Positions 9,191-63,087 of a stretch of DNA of 64,000 bases are shown here, in pieces (the stretch's first letter is position 1; every line of letters begins with the position of its first letter). Both the position numbers and the translations under genes were made by a program. This stretch comes from Nitrospirae bacterium GWF2_44_13 (GTDB taxonomy: Bacteria > Nitrospirota > Thermodesulfovibrionia > Thermodesulfovibrionales > UBA1546), in contig MHEE01000013.1 in NCBI GenBank assembly GCA_001805105.1, forward strand, positions 23,826-87,825, given 5' to 3'. Below the pieces are notes generated by a model. That model was not told the DNA's origin and searched no databases. It saw only the letters and a program-made list of their open reading frames with translations.

Positions 9191-10084
9191 GTGAAGATTA
9201 ATTTTACAAAGATGCACGGCCTCGGCAATGACTTCATCTTAATTGACTGCATTACGCAGAAGTTAAAAGTTAAAAGTGAAGAGTTAAAAGTTCTAAGCAA
9301 AAAACTCTGCCACAGGCGGTTCGGCATAGGCTCTGACCAGTTACTCCTGCTTTATCCGTCCGGAACCGCTGATTTCAGGATGCGAATATTTAACGCTGAT
9401 GGCAGCGAGGTGGAGATGTGCGGCAACGGCATAAGATGCCTTGCTAAATATATCTGGAGCAGACGGTTATCCGGAAAGGCCCTTCTTAATATTGAAACCT
9501 TGGCAGGCCTAATAAGGCCTCAGAAAAAAGGCAAACTGGTAAGAGTTGATATGGGAGAACCGTTTTTTGAGCCTGAGAAAATACCCATAAAGATACAGGA
9601 TACACGATACGGGATACAGGATTATCGTGCATCATACATCACGAATCATGCATCACGACCAATCGTTGACTATCCCATAAGGATTGAAGACAGGGAGTTT
9701 AAATTAACCTGTGTTTCAATGGGTAATCCTCATGCTGTAATAGTTGTTGACAACGTTATGGCTTTCCCTGTAATTTATTACGGGCCCTTGCTTGAAATGC
9801 ATGAGATTTTCCCTAAAAGAACTAACGTGGAATTCATAGAGATATTAAATCCCTCGGAAATAAAAATGAGAGTGTGGGAAAGAGGCGCAGGCGAGACAAT
9901 GGCATGCGGCACAGGAGCATCTGCCGCTGCTGTCGCATCCAGCCTTAAAGGGCTTTCAAAGAAGAATGTTACAGTGCATCTCACAGGGGGAGATTTGCTT
10001 GTTGAGTGGGCAAAAGACAATCATGTTTATATGACAGGTACTGCAGAGGAAGTATTTACAGGGGAGATAAGTATTAAATTATAG
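9191..10084 (+). CDS. dapF: diaminopimelate epimerase
   Basis: ORF track, 297 aa. MHGLGNDF, NADGSEVEMCGNG and ACGTGA catalytic Cys blocks. GTG start. Confidence 0.95.
   Translation: MKINFTKMHGLGNDFILIDCITQKLKVKSEELKVLSKKLCHRRFGIGSDQLLLLYPSGTADFRMRIFNADGSEVEMCGNGIRCLAKYIWSRRLSGKALLNIETLAGLIRPQKKGKLVRVDMGEPFFEPEKIPIKIQDTRYGIQDYRASYITNHASRPIVDYPIRIEDREFKLTCVSMGNPHAVIVVDNVMAFPVIYYGPLLEMHEIFPKRTNVEFIEILNPSEIKMRVWERGAGETMACGTGASAAAVASSLKGLSKKNVTVHLTGGDLLVEWAKDNHVYMTGTAEEVFTGEISIKL
9258..9299. repeat. in-frame heptanucleotide array inside dapF (AGAAGTT AAAAGTT AAAAGTG AAGAGTT AAAAGTT CTAAGCA)
   Basis: Read directly. Encodes QKLKVKSEELKVLSKK. Confidence 0.8.
9592..9661. repeat. in-frame heptanucleotide array inside dapF (GATACAG GATACAC GATACGG GATACAG GATTATC GTGCATC ATACATC ACGAATC ATGCATC ACGACCA)
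   Basis: Read directly. Encodes IQDTRYGIQDYRASYITNHASRP, between the conserved MGEPFFEP and VSMGNPH blocks. Confidence 0.85.
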
Positions 10085-23110: not shown

Positions 23111-24878
23111 ACTCAGGGAATCTGACATAGGCTCAAATCTGAGCCTTGCCGGATGGGTATTCAGAAGGAGAGACCACGGAGGCCTCATATTCATTGATCT
23201 CAGAGACAGGAGCGGACTCTGCCAGATTGTATTCAATCCTGACATTGCAGGTGATTCGCATACTAACGCGCATGACTTGAGGGCTGAATATGTCATAGCT
23301 GTGTCAGGCGAGATACGAAGAAGGCCTGAAGGCACGGAAAATCCCAATATCCCAACAGGCGCAGTTGAGATGTACGTCAACAAACTTGAAGTCCTGAACG
23401 AGTCATCACCATTGCCTTATAACATGGAAGAAGCCGCAGACGCAGGAGAGGCATTACGGCTTAAGTACAGATATCTTGACCTCAGAAGGCCTGAGATGCA
23501 GCAGAACCTTACTACGCGTCACAAGATTACAAAGGCAACAAGAGATTATCTCGATGAGAGGGGATTTCTTGAGATAGAAACACCGATGCTTACAAAATCC
23601 ACACCTGAAGGCGCAAGGGATTATCTTGTTCCGAGCAGGCTGAACCCAGGGCATTTTTATGCTCTCCCGCAATCACCTCAGCTTTTCAAACAGATATTGA
23701 TGGTTGCAGGAATGGAGAAGTATTTCCAGATTGTGAAATGTTTCCGTGACGAAGACCTAAGGGCAGACAGACAGCCTGAATTTACACAGATTGATTTGGA
23801 GATGTCATTTGTCGACAGAGAAGATGTCATTTCTCTCATGGAAGAAATGATGAAGAAGATTTTTAAAGATGTGCTTTCAATTGATATAGAAACACCTTTT
23901 CAGAGATTAAGTTTTCATGAATCAATGGAGAGATTTGGAAACGACAAGCCTGATATGAGATTCGGGCTTGAACTTAAGGATATGGCAGACCTTGCCATGA
24001 AAGGCACATTCAAGGTATTTCTTGATGCAATAAATGACAGGGGAATGGTAAAGGCGCTTAACGGCAAGGGCATGGCAGGGCTTTCAAGGAAAGATATAGA
24101 CACGCTAACAGCAGAAGCGCAGTCTTATGGCGCAAAAGGCCTTGCATGGATAAAGGTCAAGTCTGCCTCAGGCGGAGGTTTTGAATCTCCTATAGCCAAG
24201 TTCTTCCCTGAAGAGATACTTAAAAAGATGGCTGAAAGGCTTGAAGCAAAAGAAGGCGATTTAATGATGTTCGTAGCTGATAAGCCCAAGATTACTTATG
24301 ACGCCTTAAGCAGGCTCAGGCTTGCGCTCGGCGAAAGATTAAACCTCATTAAGCCGGGATATAAATTTGTATGGATAACTGATTTTCCGTTGCTTGAATG
24401 GGATGAAGAGGAAAACAGGTTTCAGGCAATGCACCATCCCTTCACATCACCCATGAATGAAGATATAGAAAAAATGCTTTCGGGAAATATTAACGATAAA
24501 GACCTTCTCTCATCATTAAAGGCAAAGGCGTATGACATTGTTTTAAATGGTTATGAGATTGGCGGCGGAAGCATCCGTATTCACAGGCAGGACGTTCAGA
24601 AAAAGATGTTTGATGTCCTGAATATCTCAGAGGAAGAGGCTAAGGTGAAGTTCGGCTTCCTGCTTGATGCGCTCCAGTATGGCGCTCCTCCGCATGGAGG
24701 CATCGCCCTCGGACTTGACAGGCTTGTGATGATAATGGTCGGAGCAACATCTATAAGAGACGTTATCGCATTTCCCAAGACACAGAAGGCTGTCTGCATG
24801 ATGTCCGGAGCGCCTTCAACAGTAGAACCAAAACAACTGAGAGAGCTTTACATAAAGACAGATGTGCCAATAGAATAG
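23085..24878 (+). CDS. aspS: aspartate--tRNA ligase
   Basis: ORF track, 597 aa. Class II motifs ([33 protein letters not shown]) and a bacterial-type insertion domain. Confidence 0.97.
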
Positions 24879-27696: not shown

Positions 27697-30234
27697 TTGT
27701 ACGAAAGATATGACCCCAAAAAAGTTGAGCTGAAATGGCAGAAGTACTGGGCTGAGAAAAATATTTTTAAAACAGAACCCGATGCTTCAAAAAAGAAATT
27801 CTACTGCCTTGAAATGTTCCCCTACCCTTCAGGGAAAATACACATGGGCCATGTCAGAAATTATGCAATCGGCGACGTAATAGCAAGATACAAGAGGATG
27901 AGAGGGTTCAATGTCATCCATCCGATGGGATGGGATGCATTTGGAATGCCTGCTGAGAACGCCGCGATAAAAGAGGGAATCCACCCTGCAAAATGGACCT
28001 ACGAAAATATCACCTACATGAAAAAACAGCTTAATCAGTTGGGGCTCAGCTATGACTGGGACAGAGAGGTTACAACATGCAGCCCTGATTACTACAAGTG
28101 GAATCAGTGGTTCTTCCTGAAGATGTATGAGAAGGGGATTGCATACAGGAAATCATCATTTGTGAACTGGTGCCCTTCATGCATGACTGTTCTTGCAAAT
28201 GAGCAGGTTATTGACAATGGATGCTGGAGATGCGATACAGCGGTAATCAAGAAAGAGTTGGAGCAGTGGTTTTTTCGTATTACGCATTATGCAAAAGACC
28301 TCCTGAAGGCGTGTGATGAGCTTAAGGGCTGGCCTGAAAAAGTTATCTTAATGCAAAAGAACTGGATTGGAAAGAGCGAGGGGCTTGAGGCTGATTTCAA
28401 AGTTGCAGGAAGGGACGAAAGAATCCGTATATTCACTACAAGGGCCGACACTTTATTTGGAGCCACATTTGTATGCCTTGCGCCTACACACCCTTTATCA
28501 GAAAAACTCGTTGTTGATAAAGAAGCTCTTAAGAAGGTCAAGGAACACTACGGCAAAGAAGATGAAAAAATTGGGCTCTTTACAGGACACTACGCAACCA
28601 ATCCCGCGAATGATGAGAAGATTCCAATTTATATAGCAAACTTCGTTCTGATGGAATACGGCACAGGAGCAATAATGTCCGTTCCTGCTCATGACCAACG
28701 GGATTTTGAATTTGCAAAAAAGTACAATCTGCCAATACGGGTGGTAATAGAACCAGAGCAGAAGTCAAAACTTACCGAAGCGTACGAAGATGAAGGCATT
28801 CTTGTTGATTCAAATTCTTTTAGCAAGCTAAGAAGTGATGTTGCAAGAATAGAGATAGCAAAGCACATAGAGAAAAAAGGCTTAGGCAAGAGGGTAATAA
28901 ATTACAAGCTCCGTGACTGGGGAATATCAAGGCAGAGATACTGGGGAACGCCGATACCGATAATTTATTGCGAGAAATGCGGTGTTGTTCCAGTCCCTGA
29001 ACAAGAACTGCCGGTAATCCTTCCAGAGGATGTGAAATTCACAGGCACAGGCGGGTCACCACTTGCAGAGTCAGAAAAATTTGTAAATACAATTTGTCCA
29101 AAATGCAAAGGCAAGGCAAGGCGAGAGACTGATACAATGGACACATTTGTTGATTCATCATGGTATTTCATTGCATATTGCGTTGACAATGGAAAGATTA
29201 ATTTCCAATCCCTAACCCCCAATCCCCAATCCCCAATAAGTTACTGGATGCCTGTTGACCAGTATGTCGGCGGTGTTGAACACGCAGTGCTTCATCTCCT
29301 CTATTCAAGATTTTTTACCCGTGTTATAAAAGACCTTGGAATCATTAACTCTCCGGAGCCTTTCACAAACCTTCTCACGCAGGGAATGGTATGTAAAGAA
29401 ACGTTGAAATGTCCTGAGCATGGCTGGCTCTTACCTGAAGATGTTAAGGATGAGAAGTGCATAAAATGCGGAAAGGCTGTTGACATAGGACGGGTTGAAA
29501 AGATGTCAAAATCAAAAAAGAATGTCATTGACCCTGACCATCTTATAAACAGATACGGGGCAGACACATCAAGGCTCTTTTCGCTCTTTGCTGCGCCGCC
29601 TGAAAGAGACCTTGAATGGTCAGACCAGGGGGTTGAGGGTGCATACAGATTCCTGAATAGGATATGGGGACTCTTATATAAAAATAAATTCAAAATTCAA
29701 AATTCAAAATTCAAAATTGAGGAGCTATCAAGCTATCAGCCATCAGCCGTGCGCCTTCTACGAAAAACACATCAGACCATAAAGCGGGTTACAAACGACA
29801 TGGAGCGCGAATACCACTTCAATACAGCGATTGCAGCGCTCATGGAGCTTGTGAATGATCTATGTTCGTTTGAGCCGAAATCAGACGACGACTGGAAAGT
29901 ATTCAGATTCGGCATTGAAGCGCTTCTGCTTTTGCTTTCTCCATTTTCTCCGCACATATCGGAAGAACTGTGGGAATCTATAGGCAACAAAAAAGGCATA
30001 CTTGAACAGAAATGGCCTTTATGGGATGAGAATATCGCAAAAGAAGAAGAAATAGAACTCGTTATTCAGATTAACGGCAAAGTAAAGGCAAAGATTATGA
30101 TAGCTGCGGGGCAGGCGGACGATGAAGTCAGGGGGAAAGCTCTTGGCGAACCCAGGATACAGGAAATTATAAAGGGGAAAACACTGAAAAAAGTCTTTAT
30201 TGTTAAAGGCAAACTTGTTAACATAGTAATATGA
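27697..30234 (+). CDS. leuS: leucine--tRNA ligase
   Basis: ORF track, 845 aa. HMGH and KMSKS class I motifs and a CP1 editing domain. TTG start according to the ORF track. Confidence 0.97.
29203..29237. repeat. in-frame heptanucleotide array inside leuS (TTCCAAT CCCTAAC CCCCAAT CCCCAAT CCCCAAT)
   Basis: Read directly. Encodes [12 protein letters not shown], between [10 protein letters not shown] and YWMPVDQY. Confidence 0.85.
29681..29751. repeat. in-frame heptanucleotide arrays inside leuS (AAAATAA ATTCAAA x4 ATTGAGG, then AGCTATCA AGCTATC AGCCATC AGCCGTG)
   Basis: Read directly. Encodes [24 protein letters not shown]. Confidence 0.85.
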
Positions 30235-30239
30235 CAAGA

Positions 30240-30740
30240 ATGAAAGTTAAAAGTTTTATGTTACTGTCTACTGTCTACTGTCTACTGTTTACTCTCTCCA
30301 GCTGCGGTTATACGCTGCAGGGCAGAGACACGCTGCCCTTTACCTCTGTCAAAATAGGCAGGATTGAAAACAAAACATTTGAACCGAAATTGGAAGATAA
30401 ATTCCAGAAAGCGCTTGCTGATGAACTCATAAGAAACGGAATAATGATTTCAAATAGCGCAAAACATATAATAAACGGCACTATAGATGACCTGAAGCTA
30501 AGCCCCCTCGCAGAAAAAGAAGGCGTAGCATCCGAATATCAGGTAATTATAAAAGCCAAATTTTTTCTTACATCCCCCGACGGGAAGGTCAAAGAGTTAA
30601 GAAACACAGGAGTTTTTATTGTATCTTTTCCAGGTTCGGGCAATATAGAAAGCTTAGTCGCGGCAAAAGAGCAGGCAACAGAAACTGCTATGAGAAATCT
30701 GGCTTCTGAGATACGTGCCGGAATAGTCTATGGCATGTAG
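30240..30740 (+). CDS. lptE: LPS-assembly lipoprotein LptE
   Basis: ORF track. Lipoprotein signal peptide with lipobox LSSC followed by GYTLQGR. Conserved leuS-lptE-holA gene order. Start (30231 or 30240) is uncertain. Confidence 0.7.
   Translation: MKVKSFMLLSTVYCLLFTLSSCGYTLQGRDTLPFTSVKIGRIENKTFEPKLEDKFQKALADELIRNGIMISNSAKHIINGTIDDLKLSPLAEKEGVASEYQVIIKAKFFLTSPDGKVKELRNTGVFIVSFPGSGNIESLVAAKEQATETAMRNLASEIRAGIVYGM
30241..30296. repeat. heptanucleotide array forming the lptE signal-peptide coding region (TGAAAGT TAAAAGT TTTATGT TACTGTC x3 TACTGTT TACTCTC)
   Basis: Read directly. Translates to KVKSFMLLSTVYCLLFTL. Confidence 0.85.
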
Positions 30741-31637
30741 ATGAGCATTAAAACCTTTTTGCAGGAAATAGACAAGGGACTGACCTCGCCTGCCTATCTT
30801 CTATATGCGGATAACGAGTACCCCATAGAAGAAGCTTTGTCTGCAATCAAAAAAACAATCCCTGAGACAGAGATGGATTTTAATTTCAATGTTTTTGACA
30901 TGGACTCTGCCGACAGTATCCCGGCTGTATGGGAAATAATTGACACCTTAAATACAATCTCTTTTTTCGGAAGCCGCAGGTATGTGGTCGTCAGGAATCT
31001 TCAAAAAATTTCTGCAAAGGAATTTAAAAAATTCCAATCCTACACAGCAAATCCGTCACCCAATTCGGCGCTTTTAATGTCCCATACCGGCACATTGAAA
31101 AAAGAAATGAAAGAAAGCACGAAAGGATTAAAGGCCATCTGCCTTGATATACGGGGAAATGACCTGTCTGTATGGATAAAAGAAAAGGCAAGGCAAAAGG
31201 GGATTACGATTAAAGATGACGCTGTGGAATACCTAATCGGAGTTGCCGGAGACGACATAGGGCTTCTGTCTTCGGAAATTGAAAAACTTGCATCATTTGG
31301 GAATGAGGCAATTACAATAAACAGCATAAAAGAAATTGTTGAGGGCAGCAGGGATTACAGCGTATTTGACCTCACAAATGCGCTGAGAGAAAGGAATGCC
31401 GAAAAAGTTCTCAGAATATACAAAAAACTCTCCGAGACAACAGAACCGTATAATCTCTTAGGCGCAATAAACTGGCACTACAGCAAGATGTCCGTGCAGG
31501 CAACCCCGAGCTGCTCGGGGCAACGGAAAGACTTTTCAAGAGCATTTGAAATCCTGAACGATGCCGATATACAGATAAAAACCTCAGGCGGCGCCTATCC
31601 GATGGAACACCTGCTTATCAGGCTGCTGCGTTTTTGA
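30741..31637 (+). CDS. holA: DNA polymerase III subunit delta
   Basis: ORF track, 298 aa. Position after leuS-lptE and typical size/helical pattern. Sequence similarity judged from memory only. Confidence 0.7.
   Translation: MSIKTFLQEIDKGLTSPAYLLYADNEYPIEEALSAIKKTIPETEMDFNFNVFDMDSADSIPAVWEIIDTLNTISFFGSRRYVVVRNLQKISAKEFKKFQSYTANPSPNSALLMSHTGTLKKEMKESTKGLKAICLDIRGNDLSVWIKEKARQKGITIKDDAVEYLIGVAGDDIGLLSSEIEKLASFGNEAITINSIKEIVEGSRDYSVFDLTNALRERNAEKVLRIYKKLSETTEPYNLLGAINWHYSKMSVQATPSCSGQRKDFSRAFEILNDADIQIKTSGGAYPMEHLLIRLLRF
31504..31520. repeat. 17-nt perfect palindrome CCCCGAGCTGCTCGGGG inside holA
   Basis: Read directly. Shares the 13-mer CCGAGCTGCTCGG with the copies at 14261 and 14746. Confidence 0.85.
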
Positions 31638-38399: not shown

Positions 38400-38469
38400 G
38401 TTATAAGTTATAAGTTTAAAGTTAGAAGTTTTTGAACTTTTCACTTTTCACTTTTAACTCTCAACTCCC
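38400..38469. repeat. inverted heptanucleotide arrays filling the qmoB-qmoC intercistronic spacer
   Basis: Read directly: GTTATAA GTTATAA GTTTAAA GTTAGAA GTTTTTG, then AACTTTT CACTTTT CACTTTT AACTCTC AACTCCC. The two arms are approximately complementary. Confidence 0.85.
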
Positions 38470-53545: not shown

Positions 53546-54412
53546 CTATAATGCGCGTACTGTAACAATCCTCTCTATGCCTGCATAGTCCTTAATAACA
53601 GAGATATTCCGGAAACCGTTCTGCATAGCGATTTCTGAGACTTCCGCTGCCTGTCCTTCTCCGATTTCAAGAAAGACAACTCCGTTGAGCATCAGGTATT
53701 TGCGCGCCTCCGAAAGTATTGTCCTGTAATAATTGAGCCCATCCTCGCCGCCGTCAAGCGCATTCCTCGGCTCCCACTTCTTTATCTCGGGCTGAAGATT
53801 CGCTATGTCACTGCTTCTGATATATGGAGGGTTTGAGACAATCATATTAAAAGTGACGGGTGACGGGTGACGAGTCACAAGTTGCTTTAAAGGCTCAAAC
53901 AGCGAGCCCTTAAGAAATGTTACATTCCTTATATCGTTAAGCCTTGCATTCTCATTTGCGTACCTTATCGCATCTTTTGATATGTCAGTCCCGTATACCT
54001 CGGCGTCAGGGAAACGCTTTGCTATCGCAAGCGCAAGGCATCCGCTCCCTGTGCAGAGGTCAAGGACTGTGAACTGTGAACTGTGGACTGTGAACTGCTT
54101 TATAACTTCTTCTGCCAGTAATTCCGTCTCAGGCCTCGGAATAAGAACGCCTTTGCCAACCTTTATCTTTAATCCGTAAAATTCCACATATCCGAGGATA
54201 TACTGAAGCGGCTCTCTCTGAGCGCACCTCCGAAGAACAACATCGACGTCCTTTATATTTTTTTCAGAAAGAACAGGGTTATCTCTGTAAAGCGCCGTCT
54301 TGTCTATGCCGAGACAATGAGTAACAATAATTTCCGATTCTTTATGAGCATCGTCAATGCCGCAATTTTCAAGAAACGCTGTGATCTCTTTTATTTTCTC
54401 AAGAGCCTTCAT
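53546..54412 (-). CDS. prmC: peptide chain release factor N5-glutamine methyltransferase
   Basis: ORF track, 288 aa. LDLCTGSGCLA SAM motif and IVSNPPYI catalytic motif. Confidence 0.9.
   Translation of the reverse strand: MKALEKIKEITAFLENCGIDDAHKESEIIVTHCLGIDKTALYRDNPVLSEKNIKDVDVVLRRCAQREPLQYILGYVEFYGLKIKVGKGVLIPRPETELLAEEVIKQFTVHSSQFTVLDLCTGSGCLALAIAKRFPDAEVYGTDISKDAIRYANENARLNDIRNVTFLKGSLFEPLKQLVTRHPSPVTFNMIVSNPPYIRSSDIANLQPEIKKWEPRNALDGGEDGLNYYRTILSEARKYLMLNGVVFLEIGEGQAAEVSEIAMQNGFRNISVIKDYAGIERIVTVRAL
53853..53880. repeat. in-frame heptanucleotide array inside prmC (GTGACGG GTGACGG GTGACGA GTCACAA)
   Basis: Read directly. On the coding (minus) strand it encodes LVTRHPSPVT just before NMIVSNPPY. 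Confidence 0.85.
54065..54099. repeat. in-frame heptanucleotide array inside prmC (GACTGTG AACTGTG AACTGTG GACTGTG AACTGCT)
   Basis: Read directly. Encodes QFTVHSSQFTV immediately before LDLCTGSG. Confidence 0.85.
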
Positions 54413-59255: not shown

Positions 59256-59285
59256 GTCTACCCCTGCTCTTTCTAACTTTTAACT

Positions 59286-59504
59286 TTATTTAAACCTGTA
59301 TGTTATCCTGCCTCTTGTAAGGTCATAAGGCGAGAGTTCCACTGTAACCTTATCACCCGGCAGTATCTTTATAAAATGCATCCTCATCTTGCCGGAAATA
59401 TGAGCGAGGATTATCTGCCCGTTCTCAAGTTTTACCCTAAACATCGCATTGGGCAGCGTTTCAACAATCTTTCCCTCTACCTCTATATTTTCCTCTTTAG
59501 GCAT
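59286..59504 (-). CDS. infA: translation initiation factor IF-1
   Basis: ORF track, 72 aa. ...[21 protein letters not shown]...HISGKMR. Confidence 0.97.
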
Positions 59505-62573: not shown

Positions 62574-62664
62574 AAAAGTTCAAAGTTGAAAGTTCAAAGT
62601 TGACAATTAACAATTCAAAATGAAGGATTCCATAATTTTTCATTTTGCTTTTTGAATTTTGCAT
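62574..62664. repeat. inverted heptanucleotide arrays filling the rplR-rpsE spacer
   Basis: Read directly: AAAAGTT CAAAGTT GAAAGTT CAAAGTT GACAATT AACAATT CAAAATG ... TTTTCAT TTTGCTT TTTGAAT TTTGCAT TTTAAAA. CAAAATGA pairs with TCATTTTG. Confidence 0.85.
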
Positions 62665-62665
62665 T

Positions 62666-63034
62666 TTAAAACTCAAGTCCGTTTTCTCTGGCAGCATCAG
62701 CTAAGGCCTTAACCCTGCCATGATAAAGATAGCCGCCCCTGTCAAAAACAACCCTCTTTATCCCCTTTTTTAATGCCTTCTTGGCTATGAGCTCGCCAAC
62801 TTGCTTTGCCGCACTAATATTGCCCTTTCCGGACTTCTTATCTTTACCTTTCAGCTCTTTATCAAGGCTTGATGCGGCAGCAATAGTGCTGCCCTTGAAA
62901 TCATCTATAATCTGTGCATACATATGTGACAGGCTCCTGTAAACTGACAGCCTCGGCCTCTCAGTTGTGCCCGCAACTTTTTTCCTTATTCTTTCATGCC
63001 TTCTTGTTCTTGCGTCCTTTATCTCTGCTGCCAA
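62666..63034 (-). CDS. rplR: 50S ribosomal protein L18
   Basis: ORF track, 122 aa. ...[18 protein letters not shown]...[17 protein letters not shown]. Confidence 0.97.
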
Positions 63035-63052: not shown

Positions 63053-63087
63053 ATTTTAAAATTCATTAATTTTGAATTTTGAATTTA
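63053..63087. repeat. heptanucleotide array (NAATTTT units) in the rplF-rplR spacer
   Basis: Read directly: ATTTTAA AATTCAT TAATTTT GAATTTT GAATTTA. Runs from the rplF stop codon towards the rplR RBS. Confidence 0.65.

Follow-up and report, generated by a model that had tools for sequence, protein, structure and literature searches.

A heptamer microsatellite at the 5' end of lptE probably encodes the lipoprotein signal peptide in Thermodesulfovibrionales

The sequence requirements of signal peptides are degenerate, and many random or simple hydrophobic sequences can function as one. Heptanucleotide repeats are known from Cyanobacteria as short tandemly repeated repetitive (STRR) sequences. 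In the opa genes of Neisseria, CTCTT pentamers form coding repeats in the leader peptide (PMC3960869). TAACTGA heptamer direct repeats occur in marine Beggiatoaceae, some Cyanobacteria and Bacteroidetes (MacGregor 2015, PMC4679880), in arrays of 2-6 copies that are found genome-wide and whose indels are in 7-nt increments. The majority immediately precede a start codon, ribosomal-protein genes being among those concerned, and a small number are within open reading frames (ORFs), where they encode heptapeptide repeats such as LSVISYQ. Over-representation of heptameric simple sequence repeats (SSRs), with the GGGAATC and GGGGA(C/T)T repeats of Xanthomonas and Nostoc, is reported in PMC4692102, which cites Mrazek 2007. 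Here we describe heptamer repeats at the 5' end of lptE, the gene for the lipopolysaccharide (LPS)-assembly outer-membrane lipoprotein, in a 64,000-nt stretch of DNA (the window; positions 23,826 to 87,825 of contig MHEE01000013.1) from Nitrospirae bacterium GWF2_44_13, which belongs to a Nitrospirota (Thermodesulfovibrionales) lineage of metagenome-assembled genomes from groundwater. We think it probable that a composite heptamer microsatellite at the 5' end of lptE is translated and acts as a signal peptide of type II (lipoprotein), and that it stems from a lineage-wide repeat process under a selective filter.

The lptE repeat resembles that of opa in that both are tandem repeats with a unit length other than a multiple of 3, and both are placed in the part of the gene that codes for the hydrophobic core of the signal peptide. 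The opa repeat, however, is a high-frequency frameshift switch in non-essential surface adhesins, whereas lptE is a housekeeping gene with a 7-nt unit, its copy number is fixed within the lineage and the differences between lineages keep the frame. The TAACTGA system is also made up of genome-wide heptamer families with some arrays upstream of ribosomal-protein starts, and its unit TTACTGA compares with TTACTGY here. The present arrays differ in phylum (Nitrospirota) and in having a different and more diverse unit repertoire. Additionally, TAACTGA and TTACTGA contain forward-frame stop codons whereas the units described here (TACTGTY, AAAGTTN) are ORF-compatible, and the lptE array is downstream of the start codon inside the ORF, in contrast with the intergenic position upstream of the start that is typical of TAACTGA. 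PMC4679880 describes neither an array-encoded signal peptide nor arrays in essential enzyme loops at the density seen here. A period-7-specific excess, dispersed arrays and a preference for gene boundaries are shared with the heptameric SSRs and STRR sequences, the difference being that here there are at least seven in-frame arrays in four genes within 64 kb. The degeneracy of signal peptides explains how a repeat-derived peptide can serve as n- and h-region, but that principle comes from engineered or random sequences, whereas here a natural mutational process would supply and renew the sequence across a clade.

Already known, therefore, are heptamer over-representation (PMC4692102), the presence of TAACTGA arrays close to start codons, and leader peptides that are encoded in part by repeats. 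We found no report in the literature of a heptamer-array-encoded signal peptide in an essential housekeeping lipoprotein, of the maintenance and renewal of such a signal peptide across a bacterial order, or of this density of in-frame heptamer arrays in essential enzymes. A literature search for heptamer repeats in Nitrospirae/Thermodesulfovibrio and for repeat-encoded signal peptides other than opa gave nothing specific. Nitrospirota are not mentioned in the heptamer-repeat literature examined and the string 'Nitrospir' is absent from the TAACTGA paper (PMC4679880).

The features of the lptE region are given below.

30231-30740, plus strand: lptE ORF, 169 aa, LPS-assembly outer-membrane lipoprotein (Pfam, AlphaFold/Foldseek and gene order)
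30231-30233, plus strand: ATG, the most likely lptE start codon, overlapping the leuS TGA stop (ATGA)
30243-30263, plus strand: remnant AAAGTTN array (AAAGTTA AAAGTTT TATGTTA), encoding the positively charged n-region KVKSFM (direct reading)
30262-30297, plus strand: TACTGTY array of 5.1 units, three perfect TACTGTC followed by TACTGTT and TACTCTC, encoding the h-region LLSTVYCLLFTL (Tandem Repeats Finder, TRF)
30294-30305, plus strand: lipobox L-S-S-C, matching the PROSITE PS51257 core pattern, with the codon of the Cys, the first residue of the mature protein, at 30303-30305
27697-30234, plus strand: leuS (Pfam), the upstream gene, with a 4-nt overlap with lptE
30741-31637, plus strand: holA, DNA polymerase III delta (Pfam PF06144), the downstream gene of the conserved leuS-lptE-holA cluster

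The original prediction, which was made from the sequence alone, described positions 30241-30296 as eight 7-nt units, and the sequence is exactly as it was given: TGAAAGT TAAAAGT TTTATGT TACTGTC TACTGTC TACTGTC TACTGTT TACTCTC. In the frame of the ATG at 30240, a second in-frame ATG that shares its frame with the ATG at 30231, the eight units are read as KVKSFMLLSTVYCLLFTL, followed by S-S-C. Only the last five units belong to a single unit family. TRF reports TACTGTC x5.1 at 30262-30297 (89% matches, score 58), and the perfect period-7 run in this part is 27 nt long. The part before it is in the same register and consists of two AAAGTTN units (AAAGTTA, AAAGTTT) and a transitional TATGTTA, which are weak by themselves in the window. 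Relatives have clean AAAGTTN/AAAGTTC arrays of 4-5 units at the same position, and after comparison with them the description as one eight-unit array was therefore dropped in favour of two adjacent arrays in one register.

There are six perfect runs at period 7 in the window. All other periods between 4 and 15 are without one, and no perfect period-7 run arose when the sequence was shuffled 30 times with a first-order Markov model, which approximately preserves dinucleotides. TRF over the window gave 49 rows, 21 of which have period 7 (approximately 17 distinct arrays). The 13-mer TACTGTCTACTGT (up to 2 mismatches) occurs seven times in the window against 0.61 expected, and four of the seven occurrences are inside the lptE array. 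Period 7 is the sole tandem period in excess within the window and a chance origin of the array is ruled out. An assembly artefact was considered and rejected, as the DNA is identical in nine loci from ENA, NCBI and JGI assemblies and a single sequencing read is long enough to span the array. A structured RNA element at the array was likewise ruled out by the z-score for 30205-30325 (+0.53) and the absence of a meaningful inverted repeat in that segment.

The ORF at 30231-30740 encodes LptE. Its product matches Pfam PF04390 over residues 37-161 (40.9 bits against a cut-off of 23, E 3.8e-10), and its AlphaFold model has a mean predicted local distance difference test (pLDDT) score of 84.3. The top Foldseek matches of the model in the PDB are the LptE chains of LptDE complexes (5iv8_D, 9kn3_B and 4q35_B; E 5e-9 to 4e-8); this fold search was used because a sequence search of the PDB with the family profile gave no matches. 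No LptE model matched the ORF product in an NCBIfam search. The gene order leuS-lptE-holA is found in the window and in loci with an identical protein (L001, L003 and L005), and it is also the gene order of E. coli. Most Gram-negative bacteria cannot do without LptE in the export of LPS.

The ATGA overlap between the leuS stop and the lptE start is kept in the window and in L010, L012, L013, L015 and L016, and in the remaining relatives the lptE ATG is 0-7 nt past the leuS stop. There is no in-frame ATG, GTG or TTG between the array and the Cys, and the array must therefore encode the n- and h-regions of the lipoprotein signal peptide. The downstream start codon that would have left the array untranslated, which the original prediction named as fatal to it, is thus absent. 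Judged from the predicted lipobox, the array cannot be a 5' untranslated region (UTR) unless the protein loses that lipobox.

The placing of the array in the n- and h-regions just before LSSC, which was the central point of the original prediction, is in keeping with the rule for lipoprotein signal peptides as predicted from the sequence. The n-region MTRMKVKS carries R3, K5 and K7 (K2 and K4 if the second ATG starts translation), so that there is K/R within the first 7 residues, and 17 uncharged residues come before the Cys at residue 25 (22 from the second ATG). The best 12-residue Kyte-Doolittle window of the h-region is 2.22 and AlphaFold predicts a helix at residues 4-23. C25-G26-Y27 is invariant in an alignment of 43 homologues. 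For comparison, the pattern expected of this class is a lipobox [LVI][ASTVI][GAS]C with its Cys at position 15-35, preceded by an uncharged hydrophobic h-region of about 7-22 residues. These features suggest that LptE may be exported by means of this signal peptide, with putative cleavage by LspA and lipidation by Lgt and Lnt.

For comparison, 117 related loci were collected, from metagenomes as well as genomes. In all of them the Cys is preceded by 12 or more uncharged residues, and in 113 there is an in-frame start followed by K/R. A period-7 array is present within 150 nt upstream of the Cys in 49/117 loci; among the other periods tested at the site (5, 6 and 8-11), only period 8 was found, in two loci. 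The density of arrays is approximately 2.8 per kb at the signal-peptide site, whereas the flanks of these loci have 0.28 per kb and loci that have no signal-peptide array 0.069 per kb. Heptamer arrays are thus common in these genomes as a whole, and the signal-peptide site is a hot spot for them. The units at this site are as follows, and TTACTGC and CTTGCTG are also found.

TACTGTY: the window, L010, L048-L053
CTGTTCA: L012, L013, L015, L017, L019
CTCTCTG: L018
TTTTCAC: L039, L108
AAATTCA, then its complement AATTTTG: L011
ATGCTCT: L032
TTACTGY: L074, L122 and others

The composite plan ATG-(AAAGTTC)4-5-linker-(TTACTGY)5-lipobox is common to relatives with 44-49% identity in the mature part. 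Where a unit variant occurs, it has spread through the array of its lineage (AAAGTGC in L100, AAAATTC in L068), and such homogenisation indicates concerted evolution of a living array. The composite architecture thus appears to be old and to be kept homogeneous. Separately, some close relatives (L014 and L016 and the proteins P0006, P0007, P0015, P0017, P0061 and P0067) have LptE N-termini of 55-64 aa before the Cys. In these long N-termini, whose translated extent is putative, there are period-8 arrays of CAGAGCAG, which encode EQQSSRAIEQQ, and after them units of the CTACTGGG type that are in part complementary.

Over 21 nt, a unit of 7 nt passes through all three reading frames and an array therefore encodes a repeating (cyclic) heptapeptide, here LLSTVYC. 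The cyclic peptide of the TACTGTY unit, YCLLSTV, has neither a stop nor a charged residue, and its hydropathy is at the 92nd percentile. All eight of the stop-free h-region units tested give an uncharged peptide, between the 84th and 99th percentile of hydropathy among stop-free heptamers. The units of the n-region and of loops in cytoplasmic enzymes, by comparison, are polar (24th-51st percentile). AAAGTTA would yield an in-frame TAA every three units, and at that phase the translated unit ends in T, both in the window and in units 2 and 5 of L017. Such 'stop-fixing' deviations are circular as evidence, however, because the codon-position analysis was restricted to open frames.

The original prediction proposed that unit number might vary in steps of three units (21 nt). 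This is so among the relatives, where there are two clean cases: CTGTTCA has one unit in L012 and L126 against four in L013, L015, L055 and L063, and TTTCACT has five units in L108 against two in L118. It is not so for the array type of the window itself, TACTGTC, which has five units in all of approximately 15 variants (85-100% mature identity) that differ by point substitutions only. A scan of metagenome contigs for TTTATGTTACTGTC N{20,50} TGCGGTTATACGCT, a pattern that does match the window and nine loci, gave no matches; either the collection lacks the lineage or the flanks vary, so copy number could not be read from it.

The 90% cluster of the window protein includes proteins whose mature parts are 95-97% identical and whose N-termini are unrelated, for example MEKSKFKNSIQNSKFFINFALLIFNFAFLLAGC and long EQQSSRA-type extensions. 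In L011 the mature part is 93% identical to the window at the nucleotide level and the signal-peptide region is unalignable. This suggests that turnover of the signal peptide is fast and can be abrupt. L011 (3444-3546) is the closest relative with a different signal peptide, and in it the leuS stop ATATGA has become ATATAA, which removes the overlapping start. Its n-region is made from AAATTCA-type units, and AAATTCA is the unit of the leuS array that lies approximately 550 nt upstream in the window (29686-29718). This pattern could reflect ectopic copying between arrays.

There is no period-7 array in any of the seven loci with less than 40% mature identity. The signal peptides of the distant homologues P0055, P0056 and P0058 are likewise ordinary ones without repeats, for example MKKLVLLAALVCLFLSGC. 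Because the most distant relatives have ordinary signal peptides, the arrays appear to have replaced one that already existed. Two origins had been offered in the original prediction: the overwriting of a signal peptide by repeats fits these data better, and de novo exaptation fits them less well.

Taken together, the data suggest that a process common to the lineage makes and homogenises 7-nt tandem repeats in Thermodesulfovibrionales genomes, presumably through slipped-strand mispairing, and that the lptE arrays are one of its local results; it would fill 5' leaders and those coding segments that are permissive. Charge, then hydrophobicity and a lipobox are all that a signal peptide requires, and selection therefore acts as a filter. 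In the h-region only stop-free, uncharged, hydrophobic units persist, and in the n-region only polar, K-rich ones; the changes in unit number that survive are those that keep the frame (three units, 21 nt). At the window locus the A-rich AAAGTTN array would thus provide the lysine-rich n-region and the TACTGTY array the uncharged hydrophobic h-region, ending in the lipobox L-S-S-C. The arrays would have taken over from an ordinary ancestral signal peptide and would have been turned over repeatedly since.

Several observations weigh against this account. The array-encoded h-region is less hydrophobic than that of relatives that have no array (mean Kyte-Doolittle 1.7 over residues -13 to -4, against approximately 3.0). 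The fixed number of five units means that ongoing slippage is not demonstrated at the window locus. The AAAGTTC and TTACTGY families persist across lineages with saturated synonymous sites, which is unexpected under pure neutral slippage. Deviations from the unit consensus fall evenly on the three codon positions (42/48/51, p 0.63, 69 distinct arrays), and there is therefore no signal of residue-level purifying selection inside the arrays; the exact residues are weakly constrained, as expected for a signal peptide. The lack of codon-position bias is compatible with a loose filter, but also with constraints at the nucleotide level. Finally, all the sequences come from metagenome assemblies.

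The lptE array is not the only one in the window, as the following list shows.

29205-29237, plus strand: in-frame leuS array, CCAATCC (TRF)
29686-29718, plus strand: in-frame leuS array, AAATTCA x4.7, perfect (TRF)
9191-10084, plus strand: dapF, diaminopimelate epimerase (TIGR00652, E 4e-90), approximately 25 aa longer than the family model
9260-9292, plus strand: dapF array AAGTTAA (KLKVKSEELKV), near the N-terminus
9592-9658, plus strand: dapF array GATACAG x4.4 and a 14-mer x2 (IQDTRYGIQDYRASYITNHAS)
53546-54412, minus strand: prmC/hemK, release-factor methyltransferase, with two in-frame arrays
54066-54097, minus strand: prmC units CAGTTCA on the sense strand (QFTVHSSQFTV), just ahead of the S-adenosylmethionine (SAM) motif LDLCTGSG
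53853-53872, minus strand: prmC units CGTCACC (VTRHPSPVT), ahead of NPPY
59269-59287, 62575-62667 and 63068-63086, in the ribosomal-protein operon on the minus strand: spacer arrays AAAGTTA; AAAGTTC/AAAGTTG; ATTTTGC; AATTTTG

The in-frame arrays of LeuS, DapF and PrmC are in loops of these proteins. In the LeuS alignment both array sites are clade-specific hypervariable segments with a 7-aa periodicity, and the peptide differs in each relative; at the first site the outgroups are approximately 9 aa shorter. The CAGTTCA unit of prmC differs by one base from the CTGTTCA unit that encodes LptE signal peptides in relatives. The spacer arrays are directly upstream of the ribosome binding site (RBS) or start of rpmJ (L36), rpsE (S5) and rplR (L18), and this is also the case for an Fe-S protein gene. 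It had been proposed that the repeat family of lptE occurs elsewhere in non-coding spacers. AAAGTTN does, but the only other ACTGTNN array in the window is inside prmC and is therefore coding. Of the 58 genes in the window, lptE alone has a lag-7 signal at the 5' end (0.53 against 0.17-0.35), and the other exported proteins have ordinary signal peptides that lack it. There are also two intergenic inverted pairs in which (AAGTTAA)n is followed by its complement (TTAACTY)n, one at 1643-1713 between a gene of the metallo-beta-lactamase fold and tRNA-Thr (1724-1796), and one at 38400-38459 between an HdrA/FlpD-like gene and an Fe-S protein gene; they could fold as long hairpins.

The strongest alternative is that the arrays are mainly a cis element at the nucleic-acid level, with 5'-proximal motifs bound by an RNA- or DNA-binding factor, and that the signal peptide is a tolerated by-product; the arrays would then be inside lptE only because the overlap with leuS leaves no leader. 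In its favour, spacer arrays of the same unit families are found just ahead of rpmJ, rpsE, rplR and the Fe-S protein gene, and binding by S1, Csp or Csr has been proposed for comparable arrays (MacGregor 2015, PMC4679880). A cis element would also account for AAAGTTC and TTACTGY being so deeply conserved, in lineages whose mature proteins are only 44-49% identical, and it is favoured by the variation within arrays being free of codon-position bias and by lptE standing alone in its lag-7 signal when other secreted proteins have ordinary signal peptides. On the other hand, the h-region units differ between close relatives and yet converge on uncharged, hydrophobic peptides, the arrays in leuS, dapF and prmC are deep inside the genes and far from any start codon, and the lptE region gives no RNA structure signal. 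We know of no binding factor for heptamer arrays. We therefore regard a mainly regulatory role as unlikely, although a role at the nucleic-acid level and a coding role may coexist.

An opa-like phase-variation switch, in which gain or loss of a single 7-nt unit shifts the frame and turns LptE on or off, is very improbable and is largely refuted. As with the CTCTT repeat of Neisseria opa (PMC3960869), the repeat is in the part of the gene that codes for the leader peptide, and the length of its unit cannot be divided by 3. However, the array type of the window is fixed at five units in every variant, which argues that it is not a phase switch; a frameshifted state was found in 0/117 loci, the differences in unit number among relatives keep the frame, and only three of the units are perfect. 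Additionally, since LptE is essential in most Gram-negatives, an off state would be costly.

It is less probable still that the array is untranslated (5' UTR or intergenic), with translation starting downstream and an ORF that merely looks longer because the repeat has no stops. Stop-free arrays are open in all frames by construction, and some pipelines annotate versions of 141 aa that start at MQGRD (P0079, P0080, P0092 and P0094). These versions lose the lipobox Cys, which is invariant, although LptE is a lipoprotein in the whole of its family. The lack of a start codon between the array and the Cys, the ATG kept at the leuS stop, the uncharged run of at least 12 residues before the Cys in every locus and the 21-nt steps of the indels are also against it. 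In the public annotations, the four NCBI entries of 141 aa begin at MQGRDTLP, past the lipobox Cys, and P0072 (159 aa) begins at MLLSTVYC, which drops the n-region; the starts of all five look like start-codon miscalls due to the repeat region. This is a problem of annotation in which the start is sometimes placed past the array, so that the signal peptide and lipobox are dropped and 141-aa 'LptE' entries result.

Finally, it is hardly credible that the periodicity is a by-product of codon bias or of selection on a repetitive hydrophobic peptide rather than of a repeat process in the DNA: the h-regions of signal peptides are of low complexity and Leu-rich, but the repeats are perfect in DNA, synonymous positions included, the effect is specific to period 7 and is also seen in cytoplasmic enzymes and in spacers that are not coding, and the other signal peptides of the window have no lag-7 signal.

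A wider reading, which we put forward tentatively and hold to be rather doubtful, is that the heptamer arrays of Thermodesulfovibrionales, instead of being passive microsatellites, form a family of sequence-specific elements that share a GTTCA/ACTG core and are actively propagated. The family might be related to the TAACTGA repeats known from Beggiatoaceae and Cyanobacteria. Such elements would have a nucleic-acid-level function near gene starts and, as a side effect, would repeatedly seed translated segments (signal peptides and surface loops) in essential proteins. If so, this would be a natural and ongoing route for the birth of coding sequence from repeats, of which the lptE signal peptide, kept throughout the history of a bacterial order, would be the clearest example.

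Because 7 nt is out of step with the codon period, repeats of such units might be expected to be excluded from essential genes. With the signal peptide of LptE as a translated microsatellite, the looseness of signal-peptide requirements would be seen in nature, in mature proteins that are 95-97% identical and carry unrelated signal peptides, and a comparison of coding with non-coding arrays would offer a way to measure selection on the units (stop, charge and hydropathy content). The locus would be an example from nature of an essential envelope protein whose functional targeting sequence is supplied, and renewed again and again, by a mutational process specific to the lineage. This suggests that a genome-wide repeat-making habit can rewrite the tolerant parts of essential proteins.

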